Positions 890 through 50,917 of a stretch of DNA of 64,000 nt are shown one piece after another. The notes below the pieces were generated by a model, which worked only from the letters and a program-made list of their open reading frames with translations, did no database searches and was not told the DNA's origin. The stretch comes from Candidatus Zhuqueibacterota bacterium. Lineage in GTDB: Bacteria > Zhuqueibacterota > Zhuqueibacteria > Residuimicrobiales > Krinioviventaceae. The stretch is from NCBI GenBank assembly GCA_016934825.1, contig JAFGSB010000158.1, forward strand, positions 66,842 to 130,841, written 5' to 3'. Position numbers and translations under genes: made by a program. The first letter of the stretch is position 1. Every line of letters starts with the position of its first letter.

Positions 890-1174
890 ATGTCTGAGAA
901 ACAAAATAAGGAACATAAAATAACGGTATTATTTTTAAATCTTGTGCTGAGTATGCAAACCGCCGCTTTACAGAATCTGGGCAAAGCGGAAAATCCCATG
1001 ACCGGCAAGGTGGAAGTTAATCCGGAACAGGCCCGGGCGTATATCGACATGCTGGATATGCTTGAAGCCAAAACACAAAACAATCTAAATGACGACGAAA
1101 AAAGATACCTGGGAAACGCGCTTACTGAATTAAAGACAATTTATGTTGAAGAGTTAAAAAAGAAAGATAAATAG
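890..1174 (+). CDS. DUF1844-like small conserved protein
   Basis: 94-aa ORF with a good RBS (GGAAAGGGAAAATAATG); charged helical protein resembling the DUF1844 family. Confidence 0.45.
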   Translation: MSEKQNKEHKITVLFLNLVLSMQTAALQNLGKAENPMTGKVEVNPEQARAYIDMLDMLEAKTQNNLNDDEKRYLGNALTELKTIYVEELKKKDK

Positions 1175-8452: not shown

Positions 8453-8464
8453 TTGTTGGAGAAA

Positions 8465-9370
8465 ATGAAAATACTGGTTACAGGTTGTTACGGTTTATTG
8501 GGACAAACGGTTTGTGAACGTGCTCCAAAATCTTTTCTAGTTTACGGAGTTGATATACATGAGGGAAATATCGTTTTACCGGATGATAAATATTTTTCTC
8601 TTGATCTGACAGATCGAAAAAAAACTCTGGAATTATTGCAGGATTTAAAGCCGGATTATATTATCAATTCCGCCGCGTACACCGATGTTGACGGCGCGGA
8701 AACGGAACGGGAATTGTGTTGGAAAATCAATGTTGATCTTGTGGAAAATTTAATTTATGGCGCCCGTAAGATTAAAGCCGGAATCGGCCACATATCAACA
8801 GATTATATCTTTGATGGAAAATCAGGTCCTTATGCGGAAGACGCGCATCCCAATCCGATAGGATATTACGGGCGTTCCAAACTTGCCGCGGAGAATGCTT
8901 TGATTGGATCATCGGTGGATTATTTTATAGCCCGTACCATGGTCCTTTACGGAATGTCAAAGAACGGTAAAACCAATTTTGTCACCTGGCTCATCGCCCA
9001 GTTGACAAATCAACGACCGGTCAAGATAGTAAATGATCAATACGGAAATACGACCCTTGCGGATGAACTGGCCGAGGGTATTTGGACATTAATAAAAAGT
9101 GGTTATTCAGGAATTTTAAATATTGCCGGCCGGGAAATCATCAACCGTTATGAATTCGCCGTCAGAATTGCGGAGGTTTTTGGATTCGACAGGGATTTGA
9201 TAACAGCCGTAACCACCGCTGAATTCAACCAACCCGCACCAAGACCGTTAAATTCCGGCCTGATTGTTGACAAGGCTCTTAACGAGTTAAATATTGTGTT
9301 AAGCGATGTTGTTGAAGGATTACATAAATTTAAATCAATTTATTATTCGGGATCACTGGTGCCCGGTTGA
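8465..9370 (+). CDS. rfbD: dTDP-4-dehydrorhamnose reductase (RfbD family)
   Basis: MKILVTGCYGLLGQ Rossmann motif, SAAYTDVD and YGRSK catalytic region. Confidence 0.8.
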   Translation: MKILVTGCYGLLGQTVCERAPKSFLVYGVDIHEGNIVLPDDKYFSLDLTDRKKTLELLQDLKPDYIINSAAYTDVDGAETERELCWKINVDLVENLIYGARKIKAGIGHISTDYIFDGKSGPYAEDAHPNPIGYYGRSKLAAENALIGSSVDYFIARTMVLYGMSKNGKTNFVTWLIAQLTNQRPVKIVNDQYGNTTLADELAEGIWTLIKSGYSGILNIAGREIINRYEFAVRIAEVFGFDRDLITAVTTAEFNQPAPRPLNSGLIVDKALNELNIVLSDVVEGLHKFKSIYYSGSLVPG

Positions 9371-9602
9371 CGGAAACCTTAAGCAGAAATTAAGTTTTTT
9401 AAAAAATGAATCGATAAAATATAGGAGTTCATTTACTTAATAAGACAGGAAACAATATAATATCAGAAAATTTGAATAATTTGATGTTTAGGGTATTGTG
9501 TTCGGTATCAGCCGGCTACAAGTACTCCGATGAATAAAATTTTTTTCGTCCCGTAACGGTTAAAAGGAAAAACCTGTAAACACATAAATAGCGGAGCGGC
9601 CT

Positions 9603-16125: not shown

Positions 16126-16210
16126 ACCGAGGGATTGTGATCTCTTGTTGCAGGTAAATTGCATAGGGGAAATGAATAATCCGTAGATACACGCGGATAG
16201 GGGATGTTTC

Positions 16211-16277
16211 ACGCAGATACCGCGGATGGAGCAGATACAAAAAAACACAACCTCTGTCATTTCGACCGCAGGGAGAA
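16211..16277. repeat. Partial copy (upstream module plus left arm) of a MITE-like inverted-repeat element
   Basis: CGCAGATACCGCGGAT...CTGTCATTTCGACCGCAGGGAGAA is shared with 16585-16652. Confidence 0.6.
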
Positions 16278-16329
16278 TTTTTGAGTATAATTAAGACACA
16301 TACGAATCACTTGCAATAGAACCGGCTAT

Positions 16330-16386
16330 GGAGTGCATCGCCTTTATGCGATGCGGATCAGCCGTCCATAAAAGGACGGCACTCCG
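16330..16386. repeat. Nested double-hairpin element; its first hairpin is repeated at 16414-16438
   Basis: GGAGTGC[GCATCGC-CTTTAT-GCGATGC]...[CCGTCC-ATAAAAGG-ACGG]GCACTCC. GGAGTGTATCGCCTTTATGCGATGC recurs 84 bp downstream. Confidence 0.55.
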
Positions 16387-16584
16387 TGTGTAAAAACTAA
16401 TTCAAGCATTTTTGGAGTGTATCGCCTTTATGCGATGCAGTTATTTGCCACGCAAAAAAACACCCCGGAGCGTGGTCTCAAACATCATTATCTGAATTAT
16501 TACATATCCGGTCGTCGAGTAAGGCTGTCGGGCACAGCGAGACAGCCTGTACCGGGACGTCCGCTGATGTTGGAAAATGTCTCT

Positions 16585-16730
16585 CGCAGATACCGCGGAT
16601 ATCGCAGATACAATAAAAAGACCACTACTGTCATTTCGACCGCAGGGAGAAATCTTAAAATGTTTTACATGAACTGATACCTCTTCAAGAAACAAGATTT
16701 CTCTTCGCTGCGCTCATCGAAATGACAGAG
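16585..16730. repeat. Full MITE-like element with about 35-bp imperfect terminal inverted repeats
   Basis: CTGTCATTTCGACCGCAGGGAGAAATCTT...AAGATTTCTCTTCGCTGCGCTCATCGAAATGACAG; the arms are reverse complements. Confidence 0.65.
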
Positions 16731-16827
16731 TGGGTTATTTGGATGAAATTTTACAAAATAATGGAAATTTATTATTAGGTTCAGATTGTCTAATTACTGT
16801 GCGTACAAACCAGACAAAACGCAAATT

Positions 16828-16930
16828 CTGTCATTTCGACCGCAGGGAGAAATCTTATTATGTTTTACATGAACTGATACCTCTTTAGGAAACAAGAATT
16901 TTCTTCGCTATGCTCATCGTAATGACGGAG
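16828..16930. repeat. Second full copy of the MITE-like inverted-repeat element
   Basis: About 90% identical to 16628-16730 across roughly 100 bp, including both arms. Confidence 0.65.
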
Positions 16931-17220
16931 CGCCGACGACGCCTTGGTCGTGAGTTATTAATAAAAATACCCGGTTCCGTATTTTCAGGAGGTTCAGCGG
17001 TTAAAGTATTTTCCCTGAAAGGGTTGCTCTATTTATACTCAGAACTTTATAATACTTATCACGTTTTATAATGCAAATACTCTACTGATAAATAAAGATG
17101 AAACTTGTATTAAATGCCCTCGTATTTTATTATTGATGTCGATTATATGTTCTTGCCGCATTATACACAAATCCTTATGAATATTAATTCTCTTTTTATC
17201 ATTAAAATGTCAGAGGATAA

Positions 17221-18142: not shown

Positions 18143-21100
18143 ATGACATCATTATATAACATTTGGGTTGTTGCCCGTTATGAAACAAAAATATTATTCA
18201 GAAGCTGGTTTTTCAGGGTACTGGCATTGATCGCCATTGGTATTCTGACCTTTCTGAATATCATTTTTTTTTCCGGCGCCGTTAAAGATGTTCCCTGGGT
18301 TTTAAGAGGTGTTCCCTCATCCATTCCATATTTTAATTTGATGATGTTAAATACCGTTCAGGCCGTATTAACTGTATTTTTGGCCTCGGATTTTCTGAAA
18401 CGGGATGTGAAAACCAATACCACAGAAGTCATTTATATGCGTTCCATGTCCAACGCCGAATATGTGCTGGGTAAAACGGGCGGAATATTAAATATATTTA
18501 TTTTACTGAATTTGATCATTTTGTTTATCGGTGCGGTTATCAATATCGCTTTTTCCGATATCGGTTTTCATTTTATCAATTACATTGTCTATTTTCTGCT
18601 TATCAGTATACCCACAATTATTTTTATTACCGGATTTACATATTTAATCATGATAATCATCCGAAATCAGCCGGTTACGCTGGTTTTAATGGTTGGTTAC
18701 ATATCGCTCTCGTTAATCTATTTACAGCATAAAGCAAATTATATATTTGATATCGTTGCCTTTTATCTGCCGTTATCCTATTCCGATTTTGTCGGCTTTG
18801 ATCAAATTTCAATTATACTTTTACAGCGGGGAATGTACCTGTTTATCGGTCTGTCGTTTATATTTTTAACAATTTTGTTTCTGAAAAGACTGCCGCAGTC
18901 AAAAATTATGCTCAGGCTGGCGCCTGTTCTGTCGGTTATTTTTATGATTACGGCAATATACTTTTGTATAACCAGCCTCGGTGTTTACAGGTCCGGTCAA
19001 TCCCTGCGAACCAATATGACGGCATTAAATGACAGGTATATTAATGAGCCGGCGGTTTCGATAACAGATTGTACGCTTGATTTTGAGCATCTGGGCGATA
19101 CTTTTTCCTGCACGGCAAACCTGAAATTCACCAACCGGGATTCCGTTCCCATAAATTCATATATTTTCAGTCTCAATCCCGGGCTTCAACTGGACAAAGT
19201 TTTACAAAATCAGCAGCAAAAGGAATTTGAGCGGCAATATCATATTATTACCATAAAACCGGAAAGGCCTTTAAATCAGGGCGAGTCCGATTCCCTGATT
19301 TTTGTGTACCGGGGCGCTCCCGATGACAACGCCTGTTACCTTGATATTGATGAACAGAAACGAAGCCGGTCGAATTATATTGTCATGTATAAAGCAGGGA
19401 AAAAGTTCAGCTTTATAACTCCCCAATATGTGCTTCTAACCCGGGAAAATTTATGGTATCCGGTTCCCGGTGTTACACATGGTTCACATCTTTACACAAA
19501 TATTAAAAAGGATTTTATTCGTTTCAAATTAAACGTAAAATTAAAGAGTGATCTTCAACCGGTATCCCAGGGTTCAATGGATAAGATGAGTGACCGTGAA
19601 TTCCGGTTTGTGCCGGAAACCCCGCTGCCGCAAATATCATTAATTATTGGAAACTATAAAAAAATATTTACCACGGTTGACAGTATTGATTATAATCTGT
19701 ATACCCTGCCGAAGCATAATTTTTATTCGCCCTATTTCACGCAAATCGGCGATACGTTGAAATCAATCATCAGCGACGCGAAAAGGGAATATGAAACAAA
19801 ACTCAATCTTGATTATCCTTTTAAGCGGTTATCCATTATTGAGGTGCCCGTACATTATATTGCCTATGACCGTCTTGTTTCGTACCACCAGGAAAACGTA
19901 CAACCGGCGCTGGTATTATTCCCGGAGAATGGGGTCAGTGTTCAGCAAGTCGATTTCAGGGCACAAATACACCGATTCGAAAGAATGGAAAGGCGCATGA
20001 ACCAGACCATTGGTGAAAAGGAAATACAGGCCCGGTTGTTCAACATGTTCGTCAATGTTTTTACGGGCGGCGTTCCCATGTTCAATCCAAACAGGAATAT
20101 TTCTGTAAATTTAAATATATTCCCAAATTATTACACTTATAAAAATGTTGTATATTCCCGGGACTGGCCTGTTTTGAACGCATCCCTTGAAGCCTATCTC
20201 AATAGTAAACTGTCGGAATCCACACCCTTTTTCGCAAGAAACTGGCAGGGAATACTGAATGAAGAAAAAGCCAATCTTGCCTTAAAAACCAGCAGTTTGA
20301 ATGAAATACTCTCCAACCCGGACAACAGGGATATTGTTAATGATGTGCTGGAAAACAAAAGTGAAATGTTGTTCAAATTGCTGACATATGTACTGGGTGA
20401 TGAACAATTCAATACATATTTAACACAATATCTCGACCGGAATCGGTTCACTTCCGTGGATTTCCTGGATTTTGTATCCGGTGTGGAGAACAAATTAAAT
20501 TTTAATTTTTATGATTTTATGCAAAAGTGGTACGGTCAAATCCAAATGCCCGGCTATTATATAGCCAATATCCAGTCATATAAAGTTCTGGACGGCAATA
20601 GAACAAGATACCAGATTCGATTTGATGTATCGAATAATGAAGATATCGACGGGTTGATAACGGTCAATTTTCGTACCAGGGGAGGCGGTGTCCGGGGCCG
20701 GTTTATGGGCGGGGGAGGAGCACGCGGCGAATCGGAACCCGAGCGGATTTATTATATTCAAAAAATGCAGACAAAACAAATCGGCATCCTCTTGGATTCA
20801 CAACCGGGAGCCATAATGATCAATTCACTGGTTTCTTTGAACCTGCCATCCGCAATTGATCGTAGATTTGAAGAATTTGATTTAAATGAAAAAGCCGTTC
20901 CTTTTGAAGGGGAAAAAATTCTGGAAAAGCCCGTAATGCTTTCGCTGCCCAATGAAATTATTGTCGATAATGAAGATGAAGGTTTTACGGTACAGGCGCA
21001 GGATGAGACAAGTCTTTTGAAAAAAATATTCAAAATGAGCAACGGTGATAAAGAAGAATATGTCGGCTTGAATATGTGGCGCGTGCCGAACAACTGGAGC

Positions 21101-33584: not shown

Positions 33585-33765
33585 TGTTTTTCTCCAAATG
33601 TCTTAATAATGTAATCTTTGTTCTTTAATAAATTTTTTACTGCTTTTTTGTTTTTTGGAAATCAATTTTTCATTTAAACCATTTATTTCAATATTTTATT
33701 TCAAAAATAATATAAACTGTTTGCAAAATTAAGAAAAAATGACTATAATATCCTGAATATAGTTG

Positions 33766-33940
33766 AATAGAGGCGCCTTTTGCAAGAGTAAACACATCAA
33801 AGGATAAGCGTATCTGTTAAAGATGTGTTAAAAGGGCAACAGGCCGAAATAGTTCCGATACGCTTTAAGGAGCTATTGGGACGGTATGTGAACAACTACC
33901 GTACTGTCACGGAAAAAAATCCGTGGAGCGCTATTTATTA
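33766..33940 (+). ncRNA. Lysine riboswitch (L-box) aptamer
   Basis: Starts with AGAGGCGCC (P1 5' strand). Conserved AAAGGGCAACAGGCCGAA core and 3' ACUGUCACGGAAAAAAAUCCGUGGAGCGCUAU, paralleling the B. subtilis lysC leader (GCUGUCAAGAAA...UUGGAGGGCUAU). A T-run follows at 34003-34012; lysine genes lie downstream. Confidence 0.7.
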
Positions 33941-34031
33941 AACATGCTGATTAATAGAAAAACAGTAGGTTGATTGAAAAGGGCGCCCCGATTCTTTCGA
34001 CCTTTTTTTTTGTTTATTTCGTTTGTTAATT

Positions 34032-35027
34032 ATGATTGAATTGCTGAATAAATTGATCGGAATTCCGTCCGTAACGGGTGATGAATATCATATCGGACAA
34101 TTTCTGGAAGAACTGCTGAAAAATAAAGGTTATACGGTAAAAACACAGGCAGTCGATCAAAACCGGTTTAATATTATTGCTTTAACGGACAATGATCCCT
34201 TTGTTCTGTTTAACACACATATTGATACGGTCCCGCCCTTTATTCCCCCCGGCAGGGATGGTAACAGGATTTATGGTCGCGGCGCCTGCGACGCGAAAGG
34301 GCAGATTGTAACCATCATCGATGCGGCAGACCGCCTGCTGAAAGAAAATATAAAGTCTTTCGGTTTGCTGTTTGTTGTCGGCGAGGAAGTTGAATCCGAC
34401 GGCGCTAAAAAGGCCGCCCGTTTGAATTTAAATTCACGCTATCTTGTGATTTGCGAACCAACGGAAAACAAGTTGGTGGTCGGACAGAAAGGGACAATTG
34501 TATTTCGAGTCAAAGCAAAAGGATCGGGCGGACATTCCTGTAATCCGGAAAAAGGTGAATCTGCAATACATAAAATCATATCCTATTTGTCCAAATGGCA
34601 GGATTATGATTGGGGAACAGATCCCTTTTTCGGTCAATCAACCGTAAATATCGGCAAAATATCCGGGGGATCGGGAATAAATATTTTGGCCGAGTATGCG
34701 GAAGCTGAAGGTATTTTCAGAGTGACGACTTTTGTGAAACAATTGAAACAAAAAATGGAACAATTGAATAATAAACTGGTTGATATTGAAATACTCAGCG
34801 AATCCGATCCGCAGAGACTGTTTAAACTGGACGGATTCGAAACGACAATCGTTGGCTTTGGAACGGATGCGTCTTATTTAAAACCCCTGGGCGATATATT
34901 AGTACTGGGCCCGGGCTCGATTGAATTCGCGCATTGTGATAATGAACATATTGTTATTGAGGATTTGAAGACAGGTTCGGATTTACTGGTCAAGATTGTA
35001 AAACAATTAATAAAGGGAAATGAGTAA
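34032..35027 (+). CDS. M20 family metallopeptidase (ArgE/DapE/LysK-type N-acyl-amino-acid deacylase)
   Basis: HIDTVPP and GRGACDAKG metal-binding motifs plus GEEVES; first gene after the lysine riboswitch. Confidence 0.75.
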   Translation: MIELLNKLIGIPSVTGDEYHIGQFLEELLKNKGYTVKTQAVDQNRFNIIALTDNDPFVLFNTHIDTVPPFIPPGRDGNRIYGRGACDAKGQIVTIIDAADRLLKENIKSFGLLFVVGEEVESDGAKKAARLNLNSRYLVICEPTENKLVVGQKGTIVFRVKAKGSGGHSCNPEKGESAIHKIISYLSKWQDYDWGTDPFFGQSTVNIGKISGGSGINILAEYAEAEGIFRVTTFVKQLKQKMEQLNNKLVDIEILSESDPQRLFKLDGFETTIVGFGTDASYLKPLGDILVLGPGSIEFAHCDNEHIVIEDLKTGSDLLVKIVKQLIKGNE

Positions 35028-36419
35028 ATGGTAGTAATGAAATTTGGCGGTACTTCGGTAGCGGACGCCGCGGCCATGCGCAGAGTGGCGGAAATTGTGA
35101 AAACAAGAATAGATAAAAAACCCATAGTCGTTGTATCCGCGGTTGGCGGCCTGACTGATAATCTGGTTGCATTGAGCAAAGAAGCTAAAAACCGGAATAT
35201 GACAAAGGTTCAGGAAGTTGTAAATGTTGTTACGGAAAGGCATTTAAAAATAGTAAGGGACCTTGGTCTGGATAAAAATGGTTCACTGGTAAATGTTGTC
35301 ACCGAAACCGCCGAACAACTAAAAAAGGTATGTACAACAATCTCTGAGGCGGAGTCGATGCAAAAAGCCCTGGTGGATGAACTTTTAAGCACCGGGGAGT
35401 ATCTCTCTTCCCATATTATGGCTGCTTACCTTGATTCTGTCGGTATGAACGGTGTGTGGGCGGACGCGCGGGAGATACTGGTGACGGATTCCGTTTACGG
35501 CAGCGCCAAACCCAATATCGGAGAATCAACTGAAAAGGCAAAAGCGAAATTACTGCCGCTGGTTTCCGATAATAAAGTACCGGTTATTCAGGGATTTATC
35601 GGCCGGGACAAAAACGGGAAAATTACCACCCTCGGCCGGGGCGGTTCCGATTATACCGCTTCACTGATCGGCGCCATGCTTGATATGGAAGCGGTGGAAA
35701 TCTGGTCCGATGTCAGCGGGGTATTAACGGCCGATCCGTCTCTGGTGCCGGAAGCAAAGAGAATTCTGCTCATGAGTTTTCAGGAAGCGGCCGAACTGGC
35801 ATATTTTGGCGCCAAAGTTCTGCACCCGGCAACGATGCATCCGGCTGTTGACAAAGGTATTCCCATTTACGTATTAAATTCGATTTATCCGGAACAGGGG
35901 GGGACAAAGATCGCTCTGTCTTCCGATATTGCGGAAGACAAAATTTGCGTTGTGAAATCAATTGCCTATAAAGAAGGATTGACAGTTGTTACCGTTAACA
36001 GTACCAGAATGTTGATGGCGCATGGTTTTATGGCATCGATATTTCAGATTTTTGAAAAGTACAATACTTCCGTCGACCTTGTGGCCACATCGGAGGTGAG
36101 CGTATCGGTCACGATTGATAATACGGAACATCTTGAAGAGATCAAAAAGGAAATCAGCGCTTTTGCCACCGTAGGCGTTGTGAGTAACAAGGCGATTGTC
36201 TGTCTGGTCGGCCAGCACCTGAAACGCACCAGCGGTATGCCGGCAAGGATTTTTGGCCTGCTCGGCGATGTGCGCATCCATTTGATCTCACAGGGCGCTT
36301 CTGAAATTAATATCAGTTTTGTGATTGACGAAGTGGACTTGAAACGTGTCATTCAGCGGTTGCACGATCATTTTTTCGGCAACTCTTATGACGTGGAAAT
36401 TTTTGCTGAAAATAATTAA
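35028..36419 (+). CDS. lysC: Aspartate kinase
   Basis: VVMKFGGTSVADA N-terminal kinase motif; two C-terminal ACT domains. Confidence 0.9.
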   Translation: MVVMKFGGTSVADAAAMRRVAEIVKTRIDKKPIVVVSAVGGLTDNLVALSKEAKNRNMTKVQEVVNVVTERHLKIVRDLGLDKNGSLVNVVTETAEQLKKVCTTISEAESMQKALVDELLSTGEYLSSHIMAAYLDSVGMNGVWADAREILVTDSVYGSAKPNIGESTEKAKAKLLPLVSDNKVPVIQGFIGRDKNGKITTLGRGGSDYTASLIGAMLDMEAVEIWSDVSGVLTADPSLVPEAKRILLMSFQEAAELAYFGAKVLHPATMHPAVDKGIPIYVLNSIYPEQGGTKIALSSDIAEDKICVVKSIAYKEGLTVVTVNSTRMLMAHGFMASIFQIFEKYNTSVDLVATSEVSVSVTIDNTEHLEEIKKEISAFATVGVVSNKAIVCLVGQHLKRTSGMPARIFGLLGDVRIHLISQGASEINISFVIDEVDLKRVIQRLHDHFFGNSYDVEIFAENN

Positions 36420-36424
36420 TTTAT

Positions 36425-36608
36425 AACGCCAGTGTTCGGTTAAATCCGAACACGCCACTCTAAACATATTATATTATTAAAATTATCAGATATGAAATCA
36501 TTATTTGACTTTTATGTAAAATTTGAATTGTTTTAATTACATTAATTGATTTTATTAAACTAATAAACCGGATCAGGCAGCGGTGTCCGGTTAACGGACA
36601 CCGCTGAA
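36425..36608 (+). repeat. About 190-bp hairpin-terminated intergenic repeat, copy A
   Basis: 5' CGCCAGTGTTCGGTTAAATCCGAACACGCCACTCTAAACATATTA ... 3' CCGGATCAGGCAGCGGTGTCCGGTTAACGGACACCGCTG. Homologous along its length to copies at 41836 and 49876. Confidence 0.7.
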
Positions 36609-36625
36609 TTTATAAGGATATTTTT

Positions 36626-37357
36626 ATGAAAATTGGTATTTTAGGATATGGCAGGATGGGGCACGAAACTGAAAAAATCGCCGCATATTCCGGTCATTCT
36701 GTCGCGGCAATTTTTGATATCGATAAACCGTTTGAAAAAACTTCGGATATTAACGGTTCGGAAGTGATAATTGATTTTACCCTGGCGGGAGCGGTAATCG
36801 ATAATTTAGAAACGGCGGCGTTTTTGGGAGTGCCAATCGTCGAAGGGACTACCGGCTGGCTTGACGGTTTTGATAAAGTAAAACAAATAAAAAATCTGAC
36901 CATGATTTACAGTCCCAATTTTTCTATTGGGGTATACCAGTATACCAAAATAGTCGAATACGCGGCAAAAATAATGGGTACCCTGGATAGTTACGATTGT
37001 TATTTACACGAGTGGCATCATACCGGCAAAGCCGACAGCCCCAGTGGAACGGCAAAAAAATTGTCGGATATACTATTGAATAATTTACAACATAAAGATA
37101 AAGCCCTGTTCGATACAAGCCATGGAGTTATTGATAAAAAAGCGCTGCATGTAACATCCACAAGGGTTGGCAGGGTTCCCGGAACACATGAGATCGGTTT
37201 TGATTCCTTATATGATAGTATTCTGTTGAAACACCAGGCCCACGGCCGGGAAGGATTAGCTTCCGGCGCGGTAAAAGCCGCCGAATGGATTATTGGTAAA
37301 AAAGGAATATTTACAATGGACGATTTCATGAATGATTTAAACAGGCAAAGCAGTTAA
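36626..37357 (+). CDS. dapB: 4-hydroxy-tetrahydrodipicolinate reductase
   Basis: MKIGILGYGRMG Rossmann motif; DapB C-domain with EWHHTGKADSPSGTA. Confidence 0.9.
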   Translation: MKIGILGYGRMGHETEKIAAYSGHSVAAIFDIDKPFEKTSDINGSEVIIDFTLAGAVIDNLETAAFLGVPIVEGTTGWLDGFDKVKQIKNLTMIYSPNFSIGVYQYTKIVEYAAKIMGTLDSYDCYLHEWHHTGKADSPSGTAKKLSDILLNNLQHKDKALFDTSHGVIDKKALHVTSTRVGRVPGTHEIGFDSLYDSILLKHQAHGREGLASGAVKAAEWIIGKKGIFTMDDFMNDLNRQSS

Positions 37358-37385
37358 AATTTTCTCATAAAAGTGAAAGGACGCA

Positions 37386-38276
37386 ATGATGGATTCTTCC
37401 AGATTTCGCGGTACCACCGTGGCATTGATTACGCCGTTTTTAAGTAACGGAAACGTGGATGAAACGGCTTATAAAAATTTACTGGACTGGCAAATAGAAC
37501 AGGGAACAGACGTTATATTGACATGCGGTACAACGGGCGAAAGCGCCACTCTTTCTCATGAAGAACACGAAAAAGTGATCGAAATAACCATTCAACACGT
37601 TAACGGCCGGGTACCCGTATTGTGCGGAACCGGCAGCAATTCGACCAGTGAAGCGATATCGTTAACTCAATTCGCGGAAAAAGCCGGCGCCGACGGTATT
37701 CTTTCAGTCGGGCCCTATTATAATAAACCTCCCCAGGAGGGATTTTACCAGCATTTTAAAGCCATTGCCGAATCCGTCAGTCTGCCGGTTATTATTTATA
37801 ACGTGCCGGGCAGAACCGGCAGCAATATCGCCGCGCAAACCACACTCCGCCTTGCAGATATTCCGAATATTATCGGTATTAAAGAGGCCAGTGGAAACTT
37901 GTCACAGATCATGGCAATTATTAAAGACCGTCCGAAGGGTTTTCTTGTGCTGTCGGGAGACGATTCAATTACACTGCCTATTTTATCATTCGGCGGGGAC
38001 GGCGTCATATCCGTTGTTGCCAACGAAGTTCCCGCCATGCTGCACGAAATGGTTCACAGTACATTTGCCGGTAACTGGGACAGGGCGCGCGAATTACACA
38101 ATAAATTACTGCCGCTTATGGAATTTAATTTTGTCGAGAGTAATCCGATCCCCGTTAAAACGGCGGTCGCTTTAATGGGTAAAGTTGAAGATCATTTCAG
38201 GCTGCCGCTGGTTAATATGACGGAAGCGAACAAACAAAAAATGAAAGATATTTTAAAAGAATTGGGATTGATTTAA
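37386..38276 (+). CDS. dapA: 4-hydroxy-tetrahydrodipicolinate synthase
   Basis: GTTGES, Schiff-base lysine region and YNVPGRTG motif. Confidence 0.9.
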   Translation: MMDSSRFRGTTVALITPFLSNGNVDETAYKNLLDWQIEQGTDVILTCGTTGESATLSHEEHEKVIEITIQHVNGRVPVLCGTGSNSTSEAISLTQFAEKAGADGILSVGPYYNKPPQEGFYQHFKAIAESVSLPVIIYNVPGRTGSNIAAQTTLRLADIPNIIGIKEASGNLSQIMAIIKDRPKGFLVLSGDDSITLPILSFGGDGVISVVANEVPAMLHEMVHSTFAGNWDRARELHNKLLPLMEFNFVESNPIPVKTAVALMGKVEDHFRLPLVNMTEANKQKMKDILKELGLI

Positions 38277-38290
38277 TAATCGGATAGAAT

Positions 38291-39145
38291 ATGGACAATT
38301 TTAAATTTTATAAATACCACGCTTTGGGAAATGATTATATCGTCATAGACCCTAAGGATACAACCCTGGATATGACGGTGGAAAATATCAGGTTAATATG
38401 CCATAGAAATTTTGGCATCGGCTCGGACGGAATTTTATACGGTCCGCTTGAGACCGAAAAGGGCGATTTCGGCCTGCGGATTTTCAATCCCGACGGCAGC
38501 GAAGCCGAAAAGAGCGGAAACGGGCTGCGCATTTTTTCCAGGTATCTGTGGGACAAAAAGTTGGTGCGGGATGAACCCTTCACGGTCGATACTCCCGGCG
38601 GACTGGTTAACTCTGTTATATTGCGAAACGGTGAACTGGTCGATGTGGAAATGGGCCGCATCAGTTTTAACAGTACAAAAATACCTGTTACGGGCGGCGA
38701 GCGCGAGGTCATAAATGAAAAGATAACCGTAAATGAAAAGACTTTTCAATTTTGCGCAGCGTCCATCGGTAATCCGCATTGTATTATCCCGTGTGAAGAG
38801 ATATCCAGGGAACTGGCGACTTTATATGGTCCTCACATCGAGACACATTCCATATTCCCGAAAAGGATCAACGTCCAGTTTTTAAAAGTGCTTGACAGAA
38901 ATAATATAAAAATTGAAATATGGGAACGCGGCGCCGGGTACACGCTGGCATCCGGCAGCAGCAGCAGCGCAGCAGCCGCGGTCGCCCGTAAACTGGGTTT
39001 GTGTGATAATCATATTACGGTTCATATGCCCGGGGGCGAGTTGAAAATTTCAATTTCCGACAATTATGATATTACCATGACGGGACCCGTCACACGCATT
39101 GGCGATGGTGTTTTAGTAAAAGAAGCTTTTACGACCAAAGTATAA
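38291..39145 (+). CDS. dapF: Diaminopimelate epimerase
   Basis: YHALGNDYIV N-terminus; catalytic Cys pair (GNPHCI and ERGAGYTLASGS). Confidence 0.85.
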   Translation: MDNFKFYKYHALGNDYIVIDPKDTTLDMTVENIRLICHRNFGIGSDGILYGPLETEKGDFGLRIFNPDGSEAEKSGNGLRIFSRYLWDKKLVRDEPFTVDTPGGLVNSVILRNGELVDVEMGRISFNSTKIPVTGGEREVINEKITVNEKTFQFCAASIGNPHCIIPCEEISRELATLYGPHIETHSIFPKRINVQFLKVLDRNNIKIEIWERGAGYTLASGSSSSAAAAVARKLGLCDNHITVHMPGGELKISISDNYDITMTGPVTRIGDGVLVKEAFTTKV

Positions 39146-39174
39146 GGTCAACAATATAAACGGAAAGGTCACGA

Positions 39175-40404
39175 ATGGCAACGATTAATTCGAATTATAA
39201 TAAACTTGCGGCCGGGTATCTGTTTCCTGAAATTGCGAGAAGGACCCGGGCATTCCTGGAAAAGAATCCGGGGGTTAAAGTCATGCGCCTGGGTATCGGC
39301 AATACAACCGAACCCCTGACGCCCTCCGTCATTAAGGGATTGTTTTCGGGGGTCGAAAAATTAGCTTCCGTCGATACGTATACGGGATATGGGGACGAAC
39401 AGGGAGACGCCCGTTTAAGGGAGGCATTGAAGAAACAATACGCCGGACTGGGTGTAAACCTGGATATCGGCGAAATATTCGTCAGCGACGGCGCCAAGCC
39501 GGACTCCGGTAATATACAATCCATATTCGGGCAGGACAATATCATCGCGGTGCAGGATCCGGCCTACCCGGTTTACGTGGATACCAACGTTATCGCAGGC
39601 CGCACCGGTTTTTTTAATAAACAGAGAGGATTGTATGACGGAATCGTCTATATGCCCTGCACTGAAGCGAACGGATTTTTTTCGCCGGTTCCGGATCAAA
39701 AAGTGGACTTGATTTATATTTGCAGCCCCAACAACCCGACGGGTACCGTGGCAACAAAAGAGCAGTTAAAAACATTTGTCGATTACGCCCGGCGGAATAA
39801 AGCGGTCATTATTTTCGACGCGGCTTATTCCGCGTTTATCAAGGATGATTCTCTTCCCAAAAGTATATTTCAAATTGACGGGGCGGCGGAATGCGCCCTG
39901 GAGATAAACAGTTTTTCCAAAATTGCCGGTTTTACTGGCGTCCGGCTCGGCTGGGCCGTGGTGCCGAAAGCGCTGACGGTTGAAAACAGCGAACCGGGAA
40001 AAATAAATGCCCTGTGGAACAGAAGACAAAGCACTTTTTTTAACGGCGCTTCCAATATCGTGCAGGAGGGCGGTCTGGCCGCTCTTTCCGAACAGGGTGC
40101 AAAAGAGTGCCGTGGATTGATAGATTATTATATGGATAATGCCCTAATTATCAAAAACGGATTGACGGAAATCGGTATCAGGGTTTTCGGCGGAGATAAC
40201 GGCCCGTATATCTGGATGCAAACTCTTAACGGAATGAACTCGTGGGACTTTTTCGATAAATTAATAACCGAGACACATGTTGTCGGCACCCCCGGTTCCG
40301 GTTTCGGACCGAGCGGCGAGGGATATTTTCGTCTCAGTTCTTTTGGTCATAAACAGGATATTATCAACGCGGTTGACAGTATAAAACAGAATCTGGTGAT
40401 ATAA
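39175..40404 (+). CDS. dapL: LL-diaminopimelate aminotransferase (DapL type)
   Basis: N-terminal INSNYNKLAAGYLFPEIARR is characteristic of DapL; class I aminotransferase with the PLP-lysine SFSK motif. Confidence 0.85.
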   Translation: MATINSNYNKLAAGYLFPEIARRTRAFLEKNPGVKVMRLGIGNTTEPLTPSVIKGLFSGVEKLASVDTYTGYGDEQGDARLREALKKQYAGLGVNLDIGEIFVSDGAKPDSGNIQSIFGQDNIIAVQDPAYPVYVDTNVIAGRTGFFNKQRGLYDGIVYMPCTEANGFFSPVPDQKVDLIYICSPNNPTGTVATKEQLKTFVDYARRNKAVIIFDAAYSAFIKDDSLPKSIFQIDGAAECALEINSFSKIAGFTGVRLGWAVVPKALTVENSEPGKINALWNRRQSTFFNGASNIVQEGGLAALSEQGAKECRGLIDYYMDNALIIKNGLTEIGIRVFGGDNGPYIWMQTLNGMNSWDFFDKLITETHVVGTPGSGFGPSGEGYFRLSSFGHKQDIINAVDSIKQNLVI

Positions 40405-40422
40405 TCTATAAAGGAAATTTTT

Positions 40423-41739
40423 ATGTTATTGTCCGGCTACGGAAAGGTAACCGATATAATTATTATTGATGCGGCGAAACGGTACGGAACACCTTTTTAC
40501 TTATATGATGAGAGTTTGATCGTGGAAAAAGGCAATACGGTGCTATCCATGCCGAACGCTTATGGTTTAAATGTCAGCTATGCCATGAAGGCAAATTCCA
40601 ATAAAGCCATATTACAGCTTTTACATAAACTGGGCTTCAGGATTGACGCGAGCTCTTTGAATGAAGCGCGGCGCGCCCACTTTGCCGGCTTTCCATTGAA
40701 CAGGATCATGCTAACGACCCAGGAAATTCCATTAAATAAAGACCGCCGGGATCTTGAACAGATGATGCTGCAGGGACTGAAATATAATGTTTGTTCCCTG
40801 CGGCAGCTGCATCTGATCGCAGAGTTTGCCTCGAAACATCATATCAATCTGGCCATGCGCGTGCACCCGGGTGTAGGGACCGGGGAATCCGTCACAAGAA
40901 ACACCGGCGATAAATATTCCTGTTTTGGCGTGCATCTGACGGATATCGAAAAAGCCCTGCAATATGCTTCAACTATGGGTTTGAAATTTGATCTTGTACA
41001 TACACATATCGGGTCCGGTGGCAGTCCGGTTGAATGGCGTAATAATATTGAAAGGGAATTGAGTTTTGTGGAAAAATATTTCCCCGACGCGACAACCGTC
41101 AATTTCGGCGGCGGCTTTAAAGAAGCCCGTATGCCGGATGAAACGGCGTCGGATATTCATGATCTGGGTTTATACGCCAAACAACGGTTTGAGGATTTTT
41201 ATAAAAGGACCGGGCGCAAACTGACAATGGAAGTGGAACCCGGTACATTTATCGTCGCCAATGCGGGCTATATTGTATCGACGGTGCTTGACATCAAACA
41301 AACCGGTCCGGACGGGTTTGAATTTTTAATTCTCGATGGCGGGATGGAAGCCAACGTCAGGCCCCTGTTGTACGGGTCCAGGCATCCGTTTTATATCGTA
41401 TCCAAACAGGGGCAATTGCTGTCATCCGAATTTGATTTGAACGGCTTTGATTCGGAAAAAGATTTGCGCGTTATTGTGGGGCGCTGCTGTGAAAGCGGGG
41501 ACTCGCAGTGTCTCGACGCAAATGGTAACATTGTACCACGTGTGATGGCCAAACCGGAAACCGGTGATTATGTTGTAATTGGCGGGACCGGCGCCTACTG
41601 TTCATCCATGTCGCCATATAATTATAATTCCTATATTCAGGCCCCGGAAATATTATTGCGGACAAACGGGGAGTTGCAGATCATCAGGAAACCGCAGACC
41701 CTGGAACAAATGATCAAAAATGAAATGTCCCTGGATTAA
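40423..41739 (+). CDS. lysA: Diaminopimelate decarboxylase
   Basis: Fold-III PLP decarboxylase with YAMKAN PLP-lysine motif, GGG and CESGD motifs. Confidence 0.85.
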   Translation: MLLSGYGKVTDIIIIDAAKRYGTPFYLYDESLIVEKGNTVLSMPNAYGLNVSYAMKANSNKAILQLLHKLGFRIDASSLNEARRAHFAGFPLNRIMLTTQEIPLNKDRRDLEQMMLQGLKYNVCSLRQLHLIAEFASKHHINLAMRVHPGVGTGESVTRNTGDKYSCFGVHLTDIEKALQYASTMGLKFDLVHTHIGSGGSPVEWRNNIERELSFVEKYFPDATTVNFGGGFKEARMPDETASDIHDLGLYAKQRFEDFYKRTGRKLTMEVEPGTFIVANAGYIVSTVLDIKQTGPDGFEFLILDGGMEANVRPLLYGSRHPFYIVSKQGQLLSSEFDLNGFDSEKDLRVIVGRCCESGDSQCLDANGNIVPRVMAKPETGDYVVIGGTGAYCSSMSPYNYNSYIQAPEILLRTNGELQIIRKPQTLEQMIKNEMSLD

Positions 41740-41754
41740 TATTGAACTGATCTT

Positions 41755-41783
41755 GGAAAAGCCCTTTTAAAGGGCTTTTTTAC
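41755..41783 (+). terminator. Rho-independent terminator of the lysine operon
   Basis: GAAAAGCCCTTTTAAAGGGCTTTTTTAC: perfect 7-bp GC-containing stem, 5-nt loop, then a U-run. Confidence 0.8.
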
Positions 41784-41835
41784 TTTATGATCCTTTATAA
41801 AAGGTTTGACATGAGAGTTTGAATTAATTATATTT

Positions 41836-42033
41836 AGCCTGACACCAGTGTCCGGTAAACCCCGGACGCGACACTCTTAACATATTTATATATTAACGTA
41901 TTCTGATATAATATCATTTATTGATTTGTTTGAGAAAAATAAATTTTTATAATTATTTAACCTGATTTTATTTAAATTGTAAGCCGTATCAGGGAGCAGT
42001 GTCCGTGAACCGGACACCAGTGTTAGCCTGAGT
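41836..42033 (+). repeat. About 190-bp hairpin-terminated intergenic repeat, copy B
   Basis: 5' AGCCTGACACCAGTGTCCGGTAAACCCCGGACGCGACACTCTTAACATATT ... 3' CCGTATCAGGGAGCAGTGTCCGTGAACCGGACACCAGTGTTAGCCTGA. Confidence 0.7.
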
Positions 42034-45743: not shown

Positions 45744-47786
45744 TTGTTACCCGTAGTAACAACAATTGAAACAAAGTGTAAACGCTGTTATTCCTGTATA
45801 CGGAATTGTCCGGCAAAGGCGATAAAAGTCGAAAAAGGCCAGGCAATGGTCATAACCGAACGATGTATTGCCTGCGGTTATTGCGTCAAAGTGTGCCCGC
45901 AGAACGCCAAAAAAATACGTGATGATATTTTTCCCACCCTGAATTTATTATCTTCTAAAAGTCGAACAGTCGCCGTATTGGCGCCGTCTTTCCCGGCAGC
46001 TTTCCCGGATCTGGAACCCGGGAAAATTTTAACCGCGATACGGAAACTTGGATTCAGCCGCGTATATGACGTGGCGTATGGCGCTGATTTGATCAGTAAA
46101 GAATACAGGGAGTTATTGGACTCCAATATTATGCCGTTTATTATTTCCTCCCCCTGTCCCGCAGTTGTTAATTATATTGAAAAATACTATCCCATTTTGA
46201 CAATGTGTCTGGCCCCGATTGTATCTCCCATGATCGCTATCGGCAGGTACATCAGCAAATATATTAATCCTGATGCGTTTATTGTTTTTATCGGTCCCTG
46301 CATTGCAAAAAAGAAAGAAATGGGCGACCCGAAAGTCACAGATGTAATAAATCAGGTTTTGACTTTTGATGAATTGAAAGAGCTGTTTACGAAAAAAAAT
46401 ATACAACCCGGCAACGAATTACCGGGTGAATTTGACGGTCCGAATGCCCACCGCGGAAAACTGTTCCCGGTTTCCGGGGGATTGTTAAAAAGCGCCGAAT
46501 TAAATTATGATATTACGGATAATGATATCATTGTCACCGAGGGTAGGGATCGCGTTCTGGAGATTTTACAGAAAGCTTCCGAAGGTCAAATTGAGGCTAA
46601 GTTTTTGGACCTGCTTTTTTGTGAAGGATGTATCAACGGCCCGAAAATTGACAATAACCTTTCGGTGTTTGTAAAAAAAGACAAGGTGATTAATTATATT
46701 AACAGCCGGGTTGAAGAGGAAAAAGAATTTACCCTGGAAAATTTCGATTTAAGCGGGCTGGATCTTGGACGTAAATTTACCAATGAATATAAGGACGAGA
46801 AAATTCCGGATGAAAACGAAATAAAAGCAATACTGCAACTTACCGGAAAAAGTAATCCTGAAGATGAACTGAATTGCGGGGCCTGTGGTTATATATCCTG
46901 CCGTGAGAAAGCGATTGCCGTTTACCAGGGACTGGCCGAGGCTGAAATGTGCCTGCCCTATATGCTGGACAGACTGGAAAAAGTCCAAAATGAGCTGCAA
47001 AAGTCCAATATAGAACTAAAAGAATCCCTGGATACCCTGAAAAAGACCCAACAACAGCTTATTCAATCGGAAAGGCTGGCTTCAATTGGAGAATTGGCCG
47101 CGGGAGTGGCTCATGAATTGAACAATCCGTTAGGGGGAGTGCTAATTTTCAGCAGTCTGTTACTAGAACGAAAAAACATCAGCGATCCGGAATACAGGGA
47201 TTTGAAAAAAATTATTGAAGAGACCGAGCGCTGCAGGAAAATTGTGCACGGATTGTTGGACTTTTCCCGACAGTCCCGTTTGCAGGCCGCTATCGCCGAT
47301 CTAAACAAGATATTAATCAGCACCCTGACCCTGATTGAAAATCAGGTCCTGTTCCAAAATATAAAAATTGTCAGGGAACTGAATCCGGATATCCACAAAG
47401 TATTTGTTGATGTCGGCCAGATTCAGCAGATAGTATTAAATATTATTTTCAACGCGGCTGAAGCGATGGACGGAAAAGGTACGCTAATTGTAAAAACCGG
47501 TTTTTCCCCGGACAAAAAATTTGTACTTGCCAGCTTTAAAGATACCGGAACCGGAATATCGGCGGAACTGCTAAATAAAATTTTTGATCCTTTTTTTACG
47601 ACCAAACCCCCCGGCAAAGGTACAGGATTGGGCCTGTCAATATCTTACGGTATCATAAAAAAACACAAAGGCGATATTATTGTTGACAGCAAGCCGGGGA
47701 AAGGGACCACATTCACAATCAAATTGCCTTCCGCCCTGGTCATGCAGGATACATACCAATTGAATAATAAAATTGTACAAAAATAA
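45744..47786 (+). CDS. Sensory [FeFe]-hydrogenase-like (HydS-type H-cluster domain with two N-terminal 4Fe-4S clusters) fused to a histidine kinase
   Basis: 2x CxxCxxCxxxCP ferredoxin motifs; H-cluster motifs SSPCPAV (L1 variant), [10 protein letters not shown] (L2) and FCEGCINGP (L3). A coiled-coil is followed by the HisKA H-box [12 protein letters not shown] and HATPase_c N/G boxes (GTGLGLSI). TTG start. Confidence 0.8.
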
Positions 47787-48245: not shown

Positions 48246-48832
48246 AAAAAAATGAAAAAAATTTCACTTTTTTGAAAAAAAGACTTGCACATTTTATTTC
48301 GTTTGTTTATAATTAAATAAAGTTGTGAAAAAAAGTACAGCTTTTGTTTATTATCATACGGAACCGATTTTCTATACATCTACAGTGAGGGTCCTGACCT
48401 GCCTCCCCGATATTACGGCCCACTACTCTTGAGACGATACCAGGATATTGAATTAAACAATACCTTTGAGTTGTCTTTATTATGCTACGAGGATTGGGAC
48501 GGTGTTTACGTATATGAGTACGATCCGGAAAATGGTAAAGGAATGTTTTTCTATTTATTGTGATATTATAGCCGCTAATCACCGACTTTTTTTGAATAGG
48601 GATTACAAGTTATAACTTCAACAAGCAGAATAAAACCGGATTGATCGATTTCATTGTAAAATCCACAAGATTGCCCAATCAAATTTACTAAAATTTTTTT
48701 CAATCAGAAAATTTTTTGACATTGTTTTTGTTGATTTTGAAAATTTTAATGATGCATTAATTCATCATGTGTCCATGTTGAAGCGATTGTCATATTTAAG
48801 ATTTTGTATTGAAATTCGATGGAGGTGAAGTA

Positions 48833-49861
48833 ATGATTATCAAAGTGGACGAATTTATTGCGTTTTTATATAAATGTCAGGATAAGGGATTTTCCGGTTT
48901 TGATCAAATTATTTTACCCGTCAGGTCCGGGAATAAAGATTCGGATTCGTTTTATTTTGCGCAATTATCAAAATCAAAAGAATTTGATATAGACTCCTAC
49001 CGGACCGTCGATCCATTAAAAATGTTTTTCTTTCTTCCCCGTGAAAAAATTCTGCCGCAAACATTTGATAATACAAAACGCTTGATCGTCGGCGCAAAAG
49101 GTTGTGATATCAGGGCGCTGAAAGTGCTTGACAAGGCCATGATTAATGAAGATTTTGTCGATCCCGCTTATTTTTATTGGCGGCAAAATACCACAATCAT
49201 TAGCGCGGATTGTACCGACATTGCCCCGACCTGTCATTGTAATCTGGTAGACGGACATCCTTATGCCGAAGCTAATTTTGATCTGAATCTTTCCCGCTAT
49301 AAAGATGTTTATGTCGTCACATCGGGAAGTGAAAAGGGCGAGGAATTGCTGGAATTATTAAAAAAGGAATGTAAAGTTGAACCCGGGTCCCCAGAAATTT
49401 CTGCCAATATTCAGGAGCAAAGAAATAAAATAATCCGGTTATTGGAAAAACAAAATGAACAATACGAGAGAAATAATGAATTTGAAAAATTAAAACAAAA
49501 CCCGATGGATAATTGGTCAGATGAATCCAAAACATGTATCGGGTGCGGCGCCTGTACGAATATCTGCCCGACCTGTTATTGTCTTATTTTAAATGATGAA
49601 ACAAAAGCGGAAGAATTTGTCAAGGTCAGGAGCATGGATTCCTGCCAGTTAAACGGATATGCCCGCGTTGCCGGCGGAAGCACGCCCCGGCCTAAAATGT
49701 TCCAGAGATTTCGTAATCGTTATTTATGTAAATTTCTATTTATGAAAAGTAATTTTGATATGTTGGGCTGCACGGGGTGCGGAAGGTGTACGGAAGCATG
49801 CGCGGCCCAAATTGATTTTCGTCAGGTAGTCAATTCTGTTTTGAACGCGGTTGTCGATTGA
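48833..49861 (+). CDS. AsrA/HydB-like iron-sulfur subunit (anaerobic sulfite reductase A / sulfhydrogenase beta family)
   Basis: C-terminal CIGCGACTNICPTCYC and CTGCGRCTEAC clusters; typical length. Confidence 0.65.
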   Translation: MIIKVDEFIAFLYKCQDKGFSGFDQIILPVRSGNKDSDSFYFAQLSKSKEFDIDSYRTVDPLKMFFFLPREKILPQTFDNTKRLIVGAKGCDIRALKVLDKAMINEDFVDPAYFYWRQNTTIISADCTDIAPTCHCNLVDGHPYAEANFDLNLSRYKDVYVVTSGSEKGEELLELLKKECKVEPGSPEISANIQEQRNKIIRLLEKQNEQYERNNEFEKLKQNPMDNWSDESKTCIGCGACTNICPTCYCLILNDETKAEEFVKVRSMDSCQLNGYARVAGGSTPRPKMFQRFRNRYLCKFLFMKSNFDMLGCTGCGRCTEACAAQIDFRQVVNSVLNAVVD

Positions 49862-49875
49862 AAATAGATATGTAT

Positions 49876-50062
49876 AGCACTAGTGTCCGGTTAAACCCGG
49901 ACACGACATTCGTAACATATTATTTTATTAACGTTTTTGGATATGATTTCATTAATTGATATGGTTGAATAAAATTAAATTTTTCCAATTTTTAGCTTGA
50001 TTTTATTGAACTTGTAAACCGGATCAGGCAGCGGTGTCCGTTAACCGGACATCAGTGATGTT
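49876..50062 (+). repeat. About 190-bp hairpin-terminated intergenic repeat, copy C (inside the hydrogenase operon)
   Basis: 5' GCACTAGTGTCCGGTTAAACCCGGACACGACATTCGTAACATATTA ... 3' CCGGATCAGGCAGCGGTGTCCGTTAACCGGACATCAGTGATGTT. Confidence 0.7.
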
Positions 50063-50095
50063 ATAGTAGAATTTTTGAGGTAACAGGAGAAGATT

Positions 50096-50917
50096 ATGAA
50101 TAACCCGTATGAGGTCGTACCTGCCACGATATATGAAATTATTCAGGAATCTCCGTTAATTCGCACGTTACGTGTTCAACCGGAGAAACCCATACCGTTT
50201 AAAACCGGACAATTTATTGAACTGACCATACCCGGCATTGGCGAGGGTCCGTTTACTCCTTCATCATCACATTTCATCAGCGAAAATATGGATATTACCA
50301 TCATGAAAACCGGTTTTGTGACGGAATATGTTCACAGAGCTAAAGTCGGCGACAAAGTGGGTTTGAGGGGACCCTACGGTTCGCATTATCCGCTCGAAAA
50401 ATTCAAGGGTAAGGACCTTTTGATACTTGGCGGCGGCTGCGGACTCGCGCCGTTACGATCACTTTTTACGACCCTGCTGCATGAAGTGGAAGATTATAAC
50501 AGCATTACATTTTTCGCGGGAGCTAAAACGCCAAAGGATTGTATCTACAAGGATTCGGTGACGGATTGGAGAAAATATGACAATGTCACGTTTATGCGCA
50601 GTGTCGATGTTGTTCCCGATGGCGAAGAGTGGGACGAGGAAGTTGGGCTGGTTACTTCGCTGTTATCCAAACTGGATATTGATACGGCTGTAAATCCGGC
50701 GGTGGTTTGCGGACCGCCTGTTATGATGAAGTTTGGTACAATGGATTTGATCAAATGCGGTTTCCGGGAAGAAAATATATATCTGTCGATGGAAAAGAAA
50801 ATGTACTGCGGTTTCGGCCAATGCCGGCATTGCGTGATGGGCGAGTTTTATGCCTGCAAAGACGGCCCCGTGTTTACTTATGCCCGGATAAAGAATGAGG
50901 AGGATATTTGGGAATGA
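50096..50917 (+). CDS. AsrB/HydG-like FAD/NAD(P)-binding oxidoreductase subunit with C-terminal [2Fe-2S]
   Basis: FNR-like fold (GQFIEL, LILGGGCGLAPLRS) and CGFGQCRHCVMGEFYAC cluster as in PyrK/AsrB/sulfhydrogenase gamma. Confidence 0.8.
   Translation: MNNPYEVVPATIYEIIQESPLIRTLRVQPEKPIPFKTGQFIELTIPGIGEGPFTPSSSHFISENMDITIMKTGFVTEYVHRAKVGDKVGLRGPYGSHYPLEKFKGKDLLILGGGCGLAPLRSLFTTLLHEVEDYNSITFFAGAKTPKDCIYKDSVTDWRKYDNVTFMRSVDVVPDGEEWDEEVGLVTSLLSKLDIDTAVNPAVVCGPPVMMKFGTMDLIKCGFREENIYLSMEKKMYCGFGQCRHCVMGEFYACKDGPVFTYARIKNEEDIWE

Follow-up and report, generated by a model that had tools for sequence, protein, structure and literature searches.

A 180-bp inverted-repeat insertion, very likely a MITE, between the asrA-like and asrB-like genes of a KSB1 hydrogenase operon

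Introduction

Among the closest described systems, the Correia elements (CREE/NEMIS) of Neisseria are ~100 to 155 bp long and are flanked by a TA duplication. They have a characteristic 26-bp terminal inverted repeat and a binding site for IHF, and some give rise to promoters. The ERIC/IRU and REP/BIME repeats of enterobacteria are structured intergenic sequences that, as transcribed parts of operons, can affect how stable the adjoining mRNA is; ERIC is 127 bp long, and REP acts as an mRNA stabilizer. HUH transposases recognize hairpin termini on single-stranded DNA, and to our knowledge REP/REPIN and IS200/IS605-type elements insert without target-site duplications. Among the insertion sequences that duplicate 9 bp of target (the IS4 family, e.g., IS10 and IS50, and the IS903 group of IS5), some IS4 subgroups have termini that begin with CA, and the ends of IS10 and IS50 carry a subterminal GATC. 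Within the MITEs proper, QMITE2 of Coxiella combines 7- to 9-bp direct repeats and 23- to 29-bp terminal inverted repeats (TIRs) with a core of 113 to 145 bp (PMC10969869). In Neisseria transcripts, the paired ends of Correia elements are cut by RNase III and mRNA levels are altered, while ERIC elements expose RNase E sites, with effects on mRNA (PMC10969869).

Here, we describe a repeat that interrupts a hydrogenase operon in the window, the whole stretch of 64,000 nucleotides analyzed, from an uncultured KSB1 lineage. Like QMITE2 and other bacterial MITEs, it is small (180 bp), has TIRs of ~25 bp, 9-bp duplications, and an AT-rich, non-coding core, lies between genes in several dispersed copies, and differs in presence and absence among relatives. 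Unlike other MITEs, each of its ends is a self-complementary hairpin, its host is an uncultured KSB1 lineage, and it lacks an Rfam match. We consider it very likely that the copy in the hydrogenase operon (copy C) arose by a single insertion of a MITE 180 bp long, itself a shortened, non-autonomous derivative of a DDE-type insertion sequence. The MITE itself is previously uncatalogued, and the kind of insertion is ordinary. Coordinates are collected in Table 1.

Table 1 Features of the insertion site and members of the repeat family (window positions unless a contig is named)
Feature	Position	Strand	Description
AsrA-like 4Fe-4S subunit	48809..49861	+	Pfam Fer4_22
AsrB-like FAD/NAD(P)-binding subunit with 2Fe-2S domain	50096..50917	+	Pfam FAD_binding_6, NAD_binding_1, DHODB-type Fe-S domain
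Proposed MITE, copy C	49878..50057	+	180 nt, 34% GC, non-coding; edges from copy alignment and termini CACTAGTG...CATCAGTG; nhmmer E = 9.6e-50
Copy C, left TIR	49878..49905	+	Local hairpin GTGTCCGG-TTAAAC-CCGGACAC at 49883-49904
Copy C, right TIR	50030..50057	+	Local hairpin GGTGTCCG-TTAAC-CGGACATC at 50033-50053
Copy C, target-site duplication, left	49869..49877		TATGTATAG
Copy C, target-site duplication, right	50058..50066		ATGTTATAG
Proposed MITE, copy A	36427..36606	+	Between lysC (end 36419) and dapB (start 36626)
Copy A, target-site duplication	36418-36426 and 36607-36615		AATTTATAA / AATTTATAA, 9/9
Proposed MITE, copy B	41843..42022	+	Between sigma-70-like promoter (41806-41834) and CAAX-protease gene (42054)
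Copy B, target-site duplication	41834-41842 and 42023-42031		TTAGCCTGA / TTAGCCTGA, 9/9
Proposed MITE, copy D, decayed	9354..9524	-	Profile match, nhmmer E = 1.1e-14; flanking duplication decayed
L044 copy	994-1172		Reversed relative to flanking genes; duplication 9/9, ATTAAAATT
L045 copy	929-1106		JGI metagenome contig; duplication 8/9

Results and Discussion

A lineage-specific gap in the hydrogenase operon

A gap of 234 nt (49862 to 50095) separates the end of the AsrA-like open reading frame (ORF) at 49861 from the start of the AsrB-like ORF at 50096. The AsrB-like protein matches, at 100% identity, one that NCBI lists for a candidate division KSB1 bacterium. Downstream of the AsrB-like gene lie genes with Pfam matches to NADHdh, Oxidored_q6, Complex1_30kDa, Complex1_49kDa/NiFeSe_Hases, and Proton_antipo_M, the subunits of a complex-I-like membrane [NiFe] hydrogenase, and by its Pfam content the operon is of the type that encodes a membrane-bound [NiFe] hydrogenase together with Mrp-type antiporter subunits. 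The true start of the AsrA-like gene is likely the ATG at 48834, which follows a GGAGG and would give a protein of 342 amino acids, the same as in the closest relatives. AsrA-like and AsrB-like proteins are probably paired subunits of the same NAD(P)H module. The insert would thus part two members of a single module and would not, as the first-pass annotation had proposed, set a sensory/NAD(P)H module apart from the remainder of the complex.

That annotation had also described a structured repeat copy splitting the two genes, in an operon whose other junctions all overlap by 4 to 11 nt. The split and the repeat itself, with further copies A and B in the window, are borne out. The statement on junctions holds for most of those downstream of asrB, the exceptions there being small gaps at 52343/52345, 56759/56762, and 60193/60255; upstream of the asrA-like gene, two junctions are gaps, one of 66 nt (47786/47853) and one of ~560 to 590 nt (48245/48809 or 48834). 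Nor does the repeat fill the whole gap or span 49876 to 50062, as had been thought: together with one 9-nt duplication, the element accounts for 189 of the 234 nt and the other 45 nt lie outside it.

Comparison with homologous operons confirmed that the asrA-asrB junction is the odd one out, since all three relatives lack the insert in an operon that otherwise matches that of the window. In L038-L040 (92% AsrB identity), a gap of 45 nt separates the two genes, and in L041/L042 (85%), the gap is 35 nt; in L043, a 6.5-Mb contig (82%), the genes overlap by 4 nt. The length of the gap in the window is the sum of the element (180 nt), one duplication (9 nt), and the spacer length of the closest relative (45 nt). 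When the window is aligned to L038 with blastn (84 to 88% nucleotide identity), the alignment is broken at ~49864 and ~50069, near the edges of the element. The right junction of copy C was also found in L001, from an independent Logan assembly (SRR13394437), where the element's final 36 nt are joined to asrB; this junction is therefore not an assembly artifact. The ribosome-binding site of asrB, AGGAG (50085 to 50089), is intact and lies 28 nt downstream of the element.

Two features upstream of the interrupted junction are described here in their own right. One is a 680-amino-acid protein (45744 to 47786) in which HisKA and HATPase_c domains are joined to a catalytic domain of the [FeFe]-hydrogenase type (Fe_hyd_lg_C, Fer4, FeS); it looks like a putative H2-sensing histidine kinase. 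Its gene lies just upstream of the [NiFe] hydrogenase operon, a placement kept in L041 and L043. The other is a gene-free leader of ~590 nt (48246 to 48833) in front of asrA that has no Rfam match and contains a promoter-like TTGACA-17-GAAAAT at 48716 to 48744. It shares 72% identity with the closest relative (L038/L039), compared with 84 to 88% for the adjacent genes.

Inverted-repeat ends with hairpins of their own

Copies A, B, and C are each exactly 180 nt long, have a GC content of 32 to 34%, and lie on the plus strand. A 22-nt hairpin motif marks them, with 3 matches in the window against 0 expected from shuffles. At the left end, each of the three copies reads C(A/G)C(C/T)AGTG-GTGTCCGG-loop-CCGGACAC, and at the right end each reads GGTGTCCG-loop-CGGACACCAGTG. 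The ends of the family, written as an outer pair, are CACYAGTGTCCGG...CCGGACACCAGTG. In copy C, the left TIR matches the reverse complement of the right end at 23 of 30 aligned columns, and across copies A, B, C, and L045 the TIRs match at 20 to 23 of 30. A conserved GATCAGG motif (50022 to 50028) lies just upstream of the right TIR of copy C. Each end also carries a hairpin of its own, with 8 bp in general and 12 self-complementary bp in copy A; the left hairpin of copy C folds as DNA at -8.8 kcal/mol (z = -4.1). The 8-bp stem is kept in five copies, with one compensatory change, from C-G to T-A, in copy A.

Between these ends, the sequence is AT rich and without coding capacity. The longest stop-free stretch in copy C is 26 to 27 amino acids, and stop-free stretches in the intact copies reach at most 49 codons on either strand. 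Ends are better kept than interiors, as in the comparison of copy C with L045, where identity is 97% at the left end, 62% in the interior, and 88% at the right end; such a pattern is expected if a transposase recognizes the ends. In another departure from other MITEs, the intact copies (A, B, C, L044, and L045) keep a nearly constant length of 178 to 180 nt while their interiors are only 49 to 76% identical. This constancy suggests either that the spacing of the two ends is constrained or that divergence has proceeded almost wholly by substitution.

Hairpin termini would also be expected of a repeat moved by a tyrosine (HUH) transposase, that is, a RAYT-mobilized REP/REPIN or a palindrome-associated derivative of IS200/IS605, and the self-complementarity of each terminus agrees with that origin. 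However, the inverted repetition between the two ends spans ~25 nt and reaches past the hairpins, and 9-bp duplications flank five of six copies, and for these reasons we rejected membership in the REP/REPIN or IS200/IS605 groups and regard an HUH origin as extremely unlikely. REP sequences differ further in lacking an inverted-repeat end pair combined with target duplications, and ERIC differs in both length and sequence. With the 9-bp-duplicating insertion sequence groups, the element would share the 9-bp duplication, the CA termini, and the subterminal GATC; the first two are reminiscent of the IS4 family or the IS903 group. No autonomous element or transposase with the same ends was found in the window or the fetched loci by profile search, nor in two end-motif scans of viral collections. 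In Rfam, the only match at gathering score in the window was a lysine riboswitch, and a search of 49700 to 50250 against Rfam 15 at E values up to 10 returned best matches with E of at least 3.5, to eukaryotic microRNA and snoRNA models.

Six family members and their target sites

The only two matches in a metagenome scan for both hairpins at a distance of 116 to 146 nt were L044 and L045, which lie in contigs of one JGI metagenome. With these, the family comprises six known members (A, B, C, D, L044, and L045). The 9-bp duplications occupy the same positions relative to the termini in copies A, B, and L044; the background frequency of a 9/9 match at such spacing across the window is 8e-5, with the real copies counted in. 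The duplication at copy C is imperfect, with (T)ATGTATAG on the left and ATGTTATAG on the right matching once one single-base indel is allowed, and it scores 5/9 when compared position by position.

Other candidates did not extend the family. No further copies were present in ~21 kb of Logan contigs from SRR13394437 (L046, L047, and L048), in which a match at 9573 to 9662 of L048 (nhmmer E = 0.02) was not family-like on inspection; the same was true of window positions 19454 to 19619 (nhmmer E = 0.22), which lie inside an ORF of 1,117 amino acids. The 3' motif CCGKATCAGGSAGCRGTGTCCG gave 36 matches in a collection of genomes from 185,579 species, all of them in high-GC Streptomyces, other Actinomycetes, and Chloroflexota. 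With nhmmer E values of ~0.03 to 0.3 confined to the pattern region, they were treated as chance, and the source species seems to be absent from this collection. A longer 3' motif had 0 matches in the metagenome scan.

Empty sites were found for other members as well. Site B is empty in L041, where a single copy of the target remains and the promoter-like TTGACA-17-TATATT is kept. The protein encoded beside the L044 copy is 81% identical to the KSB1 protein P0122, encoded in the source sample SRR13394437, and the L044 insertion site is empty in L048, a contig of that sample, which has a 38-nt gap there. This comparison indicates independent insertions in two KSB1 lineages, each site being empty in the other. 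Since the duplications are near perfect while the copies differ by 20 to 40%, the insertions probably took place fairly recently and drew on source copies that differed from one another beforehand.

The identification as a MITE follows from this combination of TIRs, duplications of constant length, small size (178 to 180 nt), lack of an ORF or transposase gene, and several dispersed copies, together with sites that are occupied in one genome but empty in a related one, namely C (empty in three relatives), B (empty in L041), and the L044 site (empty in L048). A mobile element explains why the repeat is present, and no function is needed to do so. That the repeat is instead a shared, immobile cis-regulatory leader or small-RNA gene of three operons, for instance a riboswitch-like 5' element or an operator, might be read from the placement of all three intact window copies on the coding strand and ending just upstream of a start codon, but we give this reading almost no credence, given the lack of an Rfam match even at E values up to 10, the empty sites in relatives, the flanking duplications, the unrelated functions of the downstream genes (dapB, CAAX protease, and asrB), the reversed copies D and L044, and the low interior identity between copies.

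At two sites, an insertion seems to have touched a neighboring gene. The ORF at 8453 to 9370 runs 14 nt into copy D and ends at a TGA within the MITE terminus, and the insertion probably changed the C terminus of the encoded protein. In L044 (1165 to 1185), the terminus CACCAG has become CCCTCG. On the gene strand this is GAGGG, and it precedes the ATG (1183) of the downstream gene by 10 nt; the element may supply the Shine-Dalgarno sequence of that gene.

Transcription through the element and folding of its RNA

We asked whether copy C carries signals that would stop or start transcription within the operon. Scans of 49600 to 50300 found no sigma-70-like promoter, and neither that region nor 36300 to 36700, around copy A, contains a terminator-like site (hairpin plus T-run). 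Both hairpins of copy C lack a following T-run, the sequences after them being GACATTCG and AGTGATGT. The same scan in the vicinity of copy B found a good terminator after lysA (41754 to 41782) and an 11/12 match to a promoter, TTGACA-17-TATATT (41806 to 41834). The organism thus uses canonical signals, and the scan is informative for copy C. An IHF site, WATCAANNNNTTR, had no match on either strand of any copy, and within the copies we found neither the Bacteroidota-type -7 motif (TAnnTTTG) nor the -33/-7 pair. An extended -10, TGATATAAT, occurs in copy B only and is not kept in C. Copy B lies directly downstream of the -10 box and is probably in the 5' untranslated region of the CAAX-protease gene.

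Copy A offers a view of a second operon. A lysine riboswitch (Rfam RF00168, 114 bits) at 33760 to 33941 heads an operon (within 33760 to 42031 of the window) with genes for an M20 peptidase, lysC, dapB, dapA, dapF, an aminotransferase, and lysA, and copy A lies between lysC and dapB in the same orientation. If this operon is a single riboswitch-controlled unit, the genes downstream of copy A need read-through, and we infer that the element lets transcription pass. The 9-bp duplication of copy A overlaps the lysC stop codon and re-creates an AAGGA before dapB. Action of copy C as an attenuator, as the first-pass annotation had suggested, is not upheld: a GC-rich hairpin followed by a T-run is lacking in both scanned regions, so that membership among intrinsic terminators or attenuators was rejected, and copy A argues for read-through.

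As RNA, copy C has a predicted minimum-free-energy fold in which the two ends pair over ~24 bp, at -54 kcal/mol for the spacer and -50 kcal/mol for the element by itself. Compared with shuffled sequences, the spacer as a whole folds only modestly better (z = -2.1). A consensus fold of the five intact copies contains two local hairpins only, with the one compensatory pair in copy A. Conservation of the hairpins is equally explained by recognition at the DNA level or by palindrome correction. Like Correia elements, copy C is short, lies between presumably co-transcribed genes, and has ends that are predicted to pair. Unlike them, the KSB1 element has a 9-bp duplication, no IHF consensus, and, in copy C, no sigma-70-like promoter. 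Membership in the Correia family was rejected on the 9-bp rather than TA duplication, the lack of an IHF match in any copy, and the lack of any sequence relationship. By analogy with the behavior of Correia ends and from the predicted fold, processing of the copy C transcript by RNase III is possible.

Regulatory role or tolerated insertion

The alternative that survives best holds that the insert has been exapted, as an attenuator or as a determinant of processing or stability that sets the level of AsrA against those of AsrB and the membrane hydrogenase, and that it is kept by selection. Consistent with such a role, copies A, B, and C share one orientation and lie on the coding strand, 19 to 38 nt upstream of a start codon, the hairpins of the various copies are conserved and include one compensatory pair, and the predicted long-range duplex resembles the RNase III substrates in Correia elements (PMC10969869). 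However, three copies would fall in one orientation by chance with a probability of 1/4, and D and L044 are reversed relative to their flanking genes. Similarly, the hairpins lie inside the TIRs, where recognition by a transposase explains their conservation. No T-run or terminator-like site accompanies the insert, though the genome uses canonical terminators, and three relatives with otherwise the same operons do without the insert. Furthermore, if AsrA-like and AsrB-like proteins are partner subunits, their unequal expression would bring no obvious benefit. We therefore regard exaptation as highly improbable, and an adaptive regulatory role of copy C in any form as very unlikely at best.

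In the MITE reading, a transposase encoded elsewhere would recognize the ~25-bp TIRs, and insertion at an AT-rich target through a 9-bp staggered cut would leave the 9-bp duplication. The element would have entered the 45-nt asrA-asrB spacer of a KSB1 bacterium after its split from the sampled relatives. Its position, downstream of the stop codon of asrA and upstream of the ribosome-binding site of asrB, presumably made it tolerable. The element would then be transcribed as part of the polycistronic mRNA, and it appears to neither terminate nor initiate transcription. The likeliest side effect would be at the RNA level, where the ~24-bp duplex of the ends might serve as an RNase III-type substrate and modestly shift the balance between asrA and downstream message. 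We consider any measurable effect conceivable but rather doubtful. Considerably less likely is a broader proposal, which we offer as speculation, that this is an undescribed and still active KSB1 MITE family whose ends double as transposase-binding repeats and as self-folding hairpins 180 nt apart, and whose transcribed ends form an RNase III-type site that uncouples asrA and lysC from the genes downstream of them.

If copy C is a MITE, then the unusual 234-nt gap in this compact operon was not designed for regulation but is the trace of a recent insertion confined to one lineage, and those who annotate or model this hydrogenase operon need assume no extra control point. The family is defined for an uncultured phylum by its consensus ends, 9-bp duplication, and length of 180 nt. 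It may be used for finding the transposase, for flagging assembly break points, and as a presence/absence marker among close KSB1 populations. Should the paired ends prove to be processed in mRNA, this would be a further case, beyond those in Neisseria and enterobacteria, of MITEs altering expression within operons, and if the family is indeed active, transposition would be a source of such operon-internal expression changes in the KSB1 lineage.

The window also holds another small repeat family. A 1.1-kb region without a convincing gene (16126 to 17220) contains repeats at 16204 to 16282, 16577 to 16730, and 16816 to 16930. These have inverted ends, CTGTCATTTCGACCGCAGGGAGAAATCTT ... AAGATTTCTCTTCGC...TCGAAATGACAG, and are arranged as two units of ~100 nt, 200 nt apart, and a partial third.
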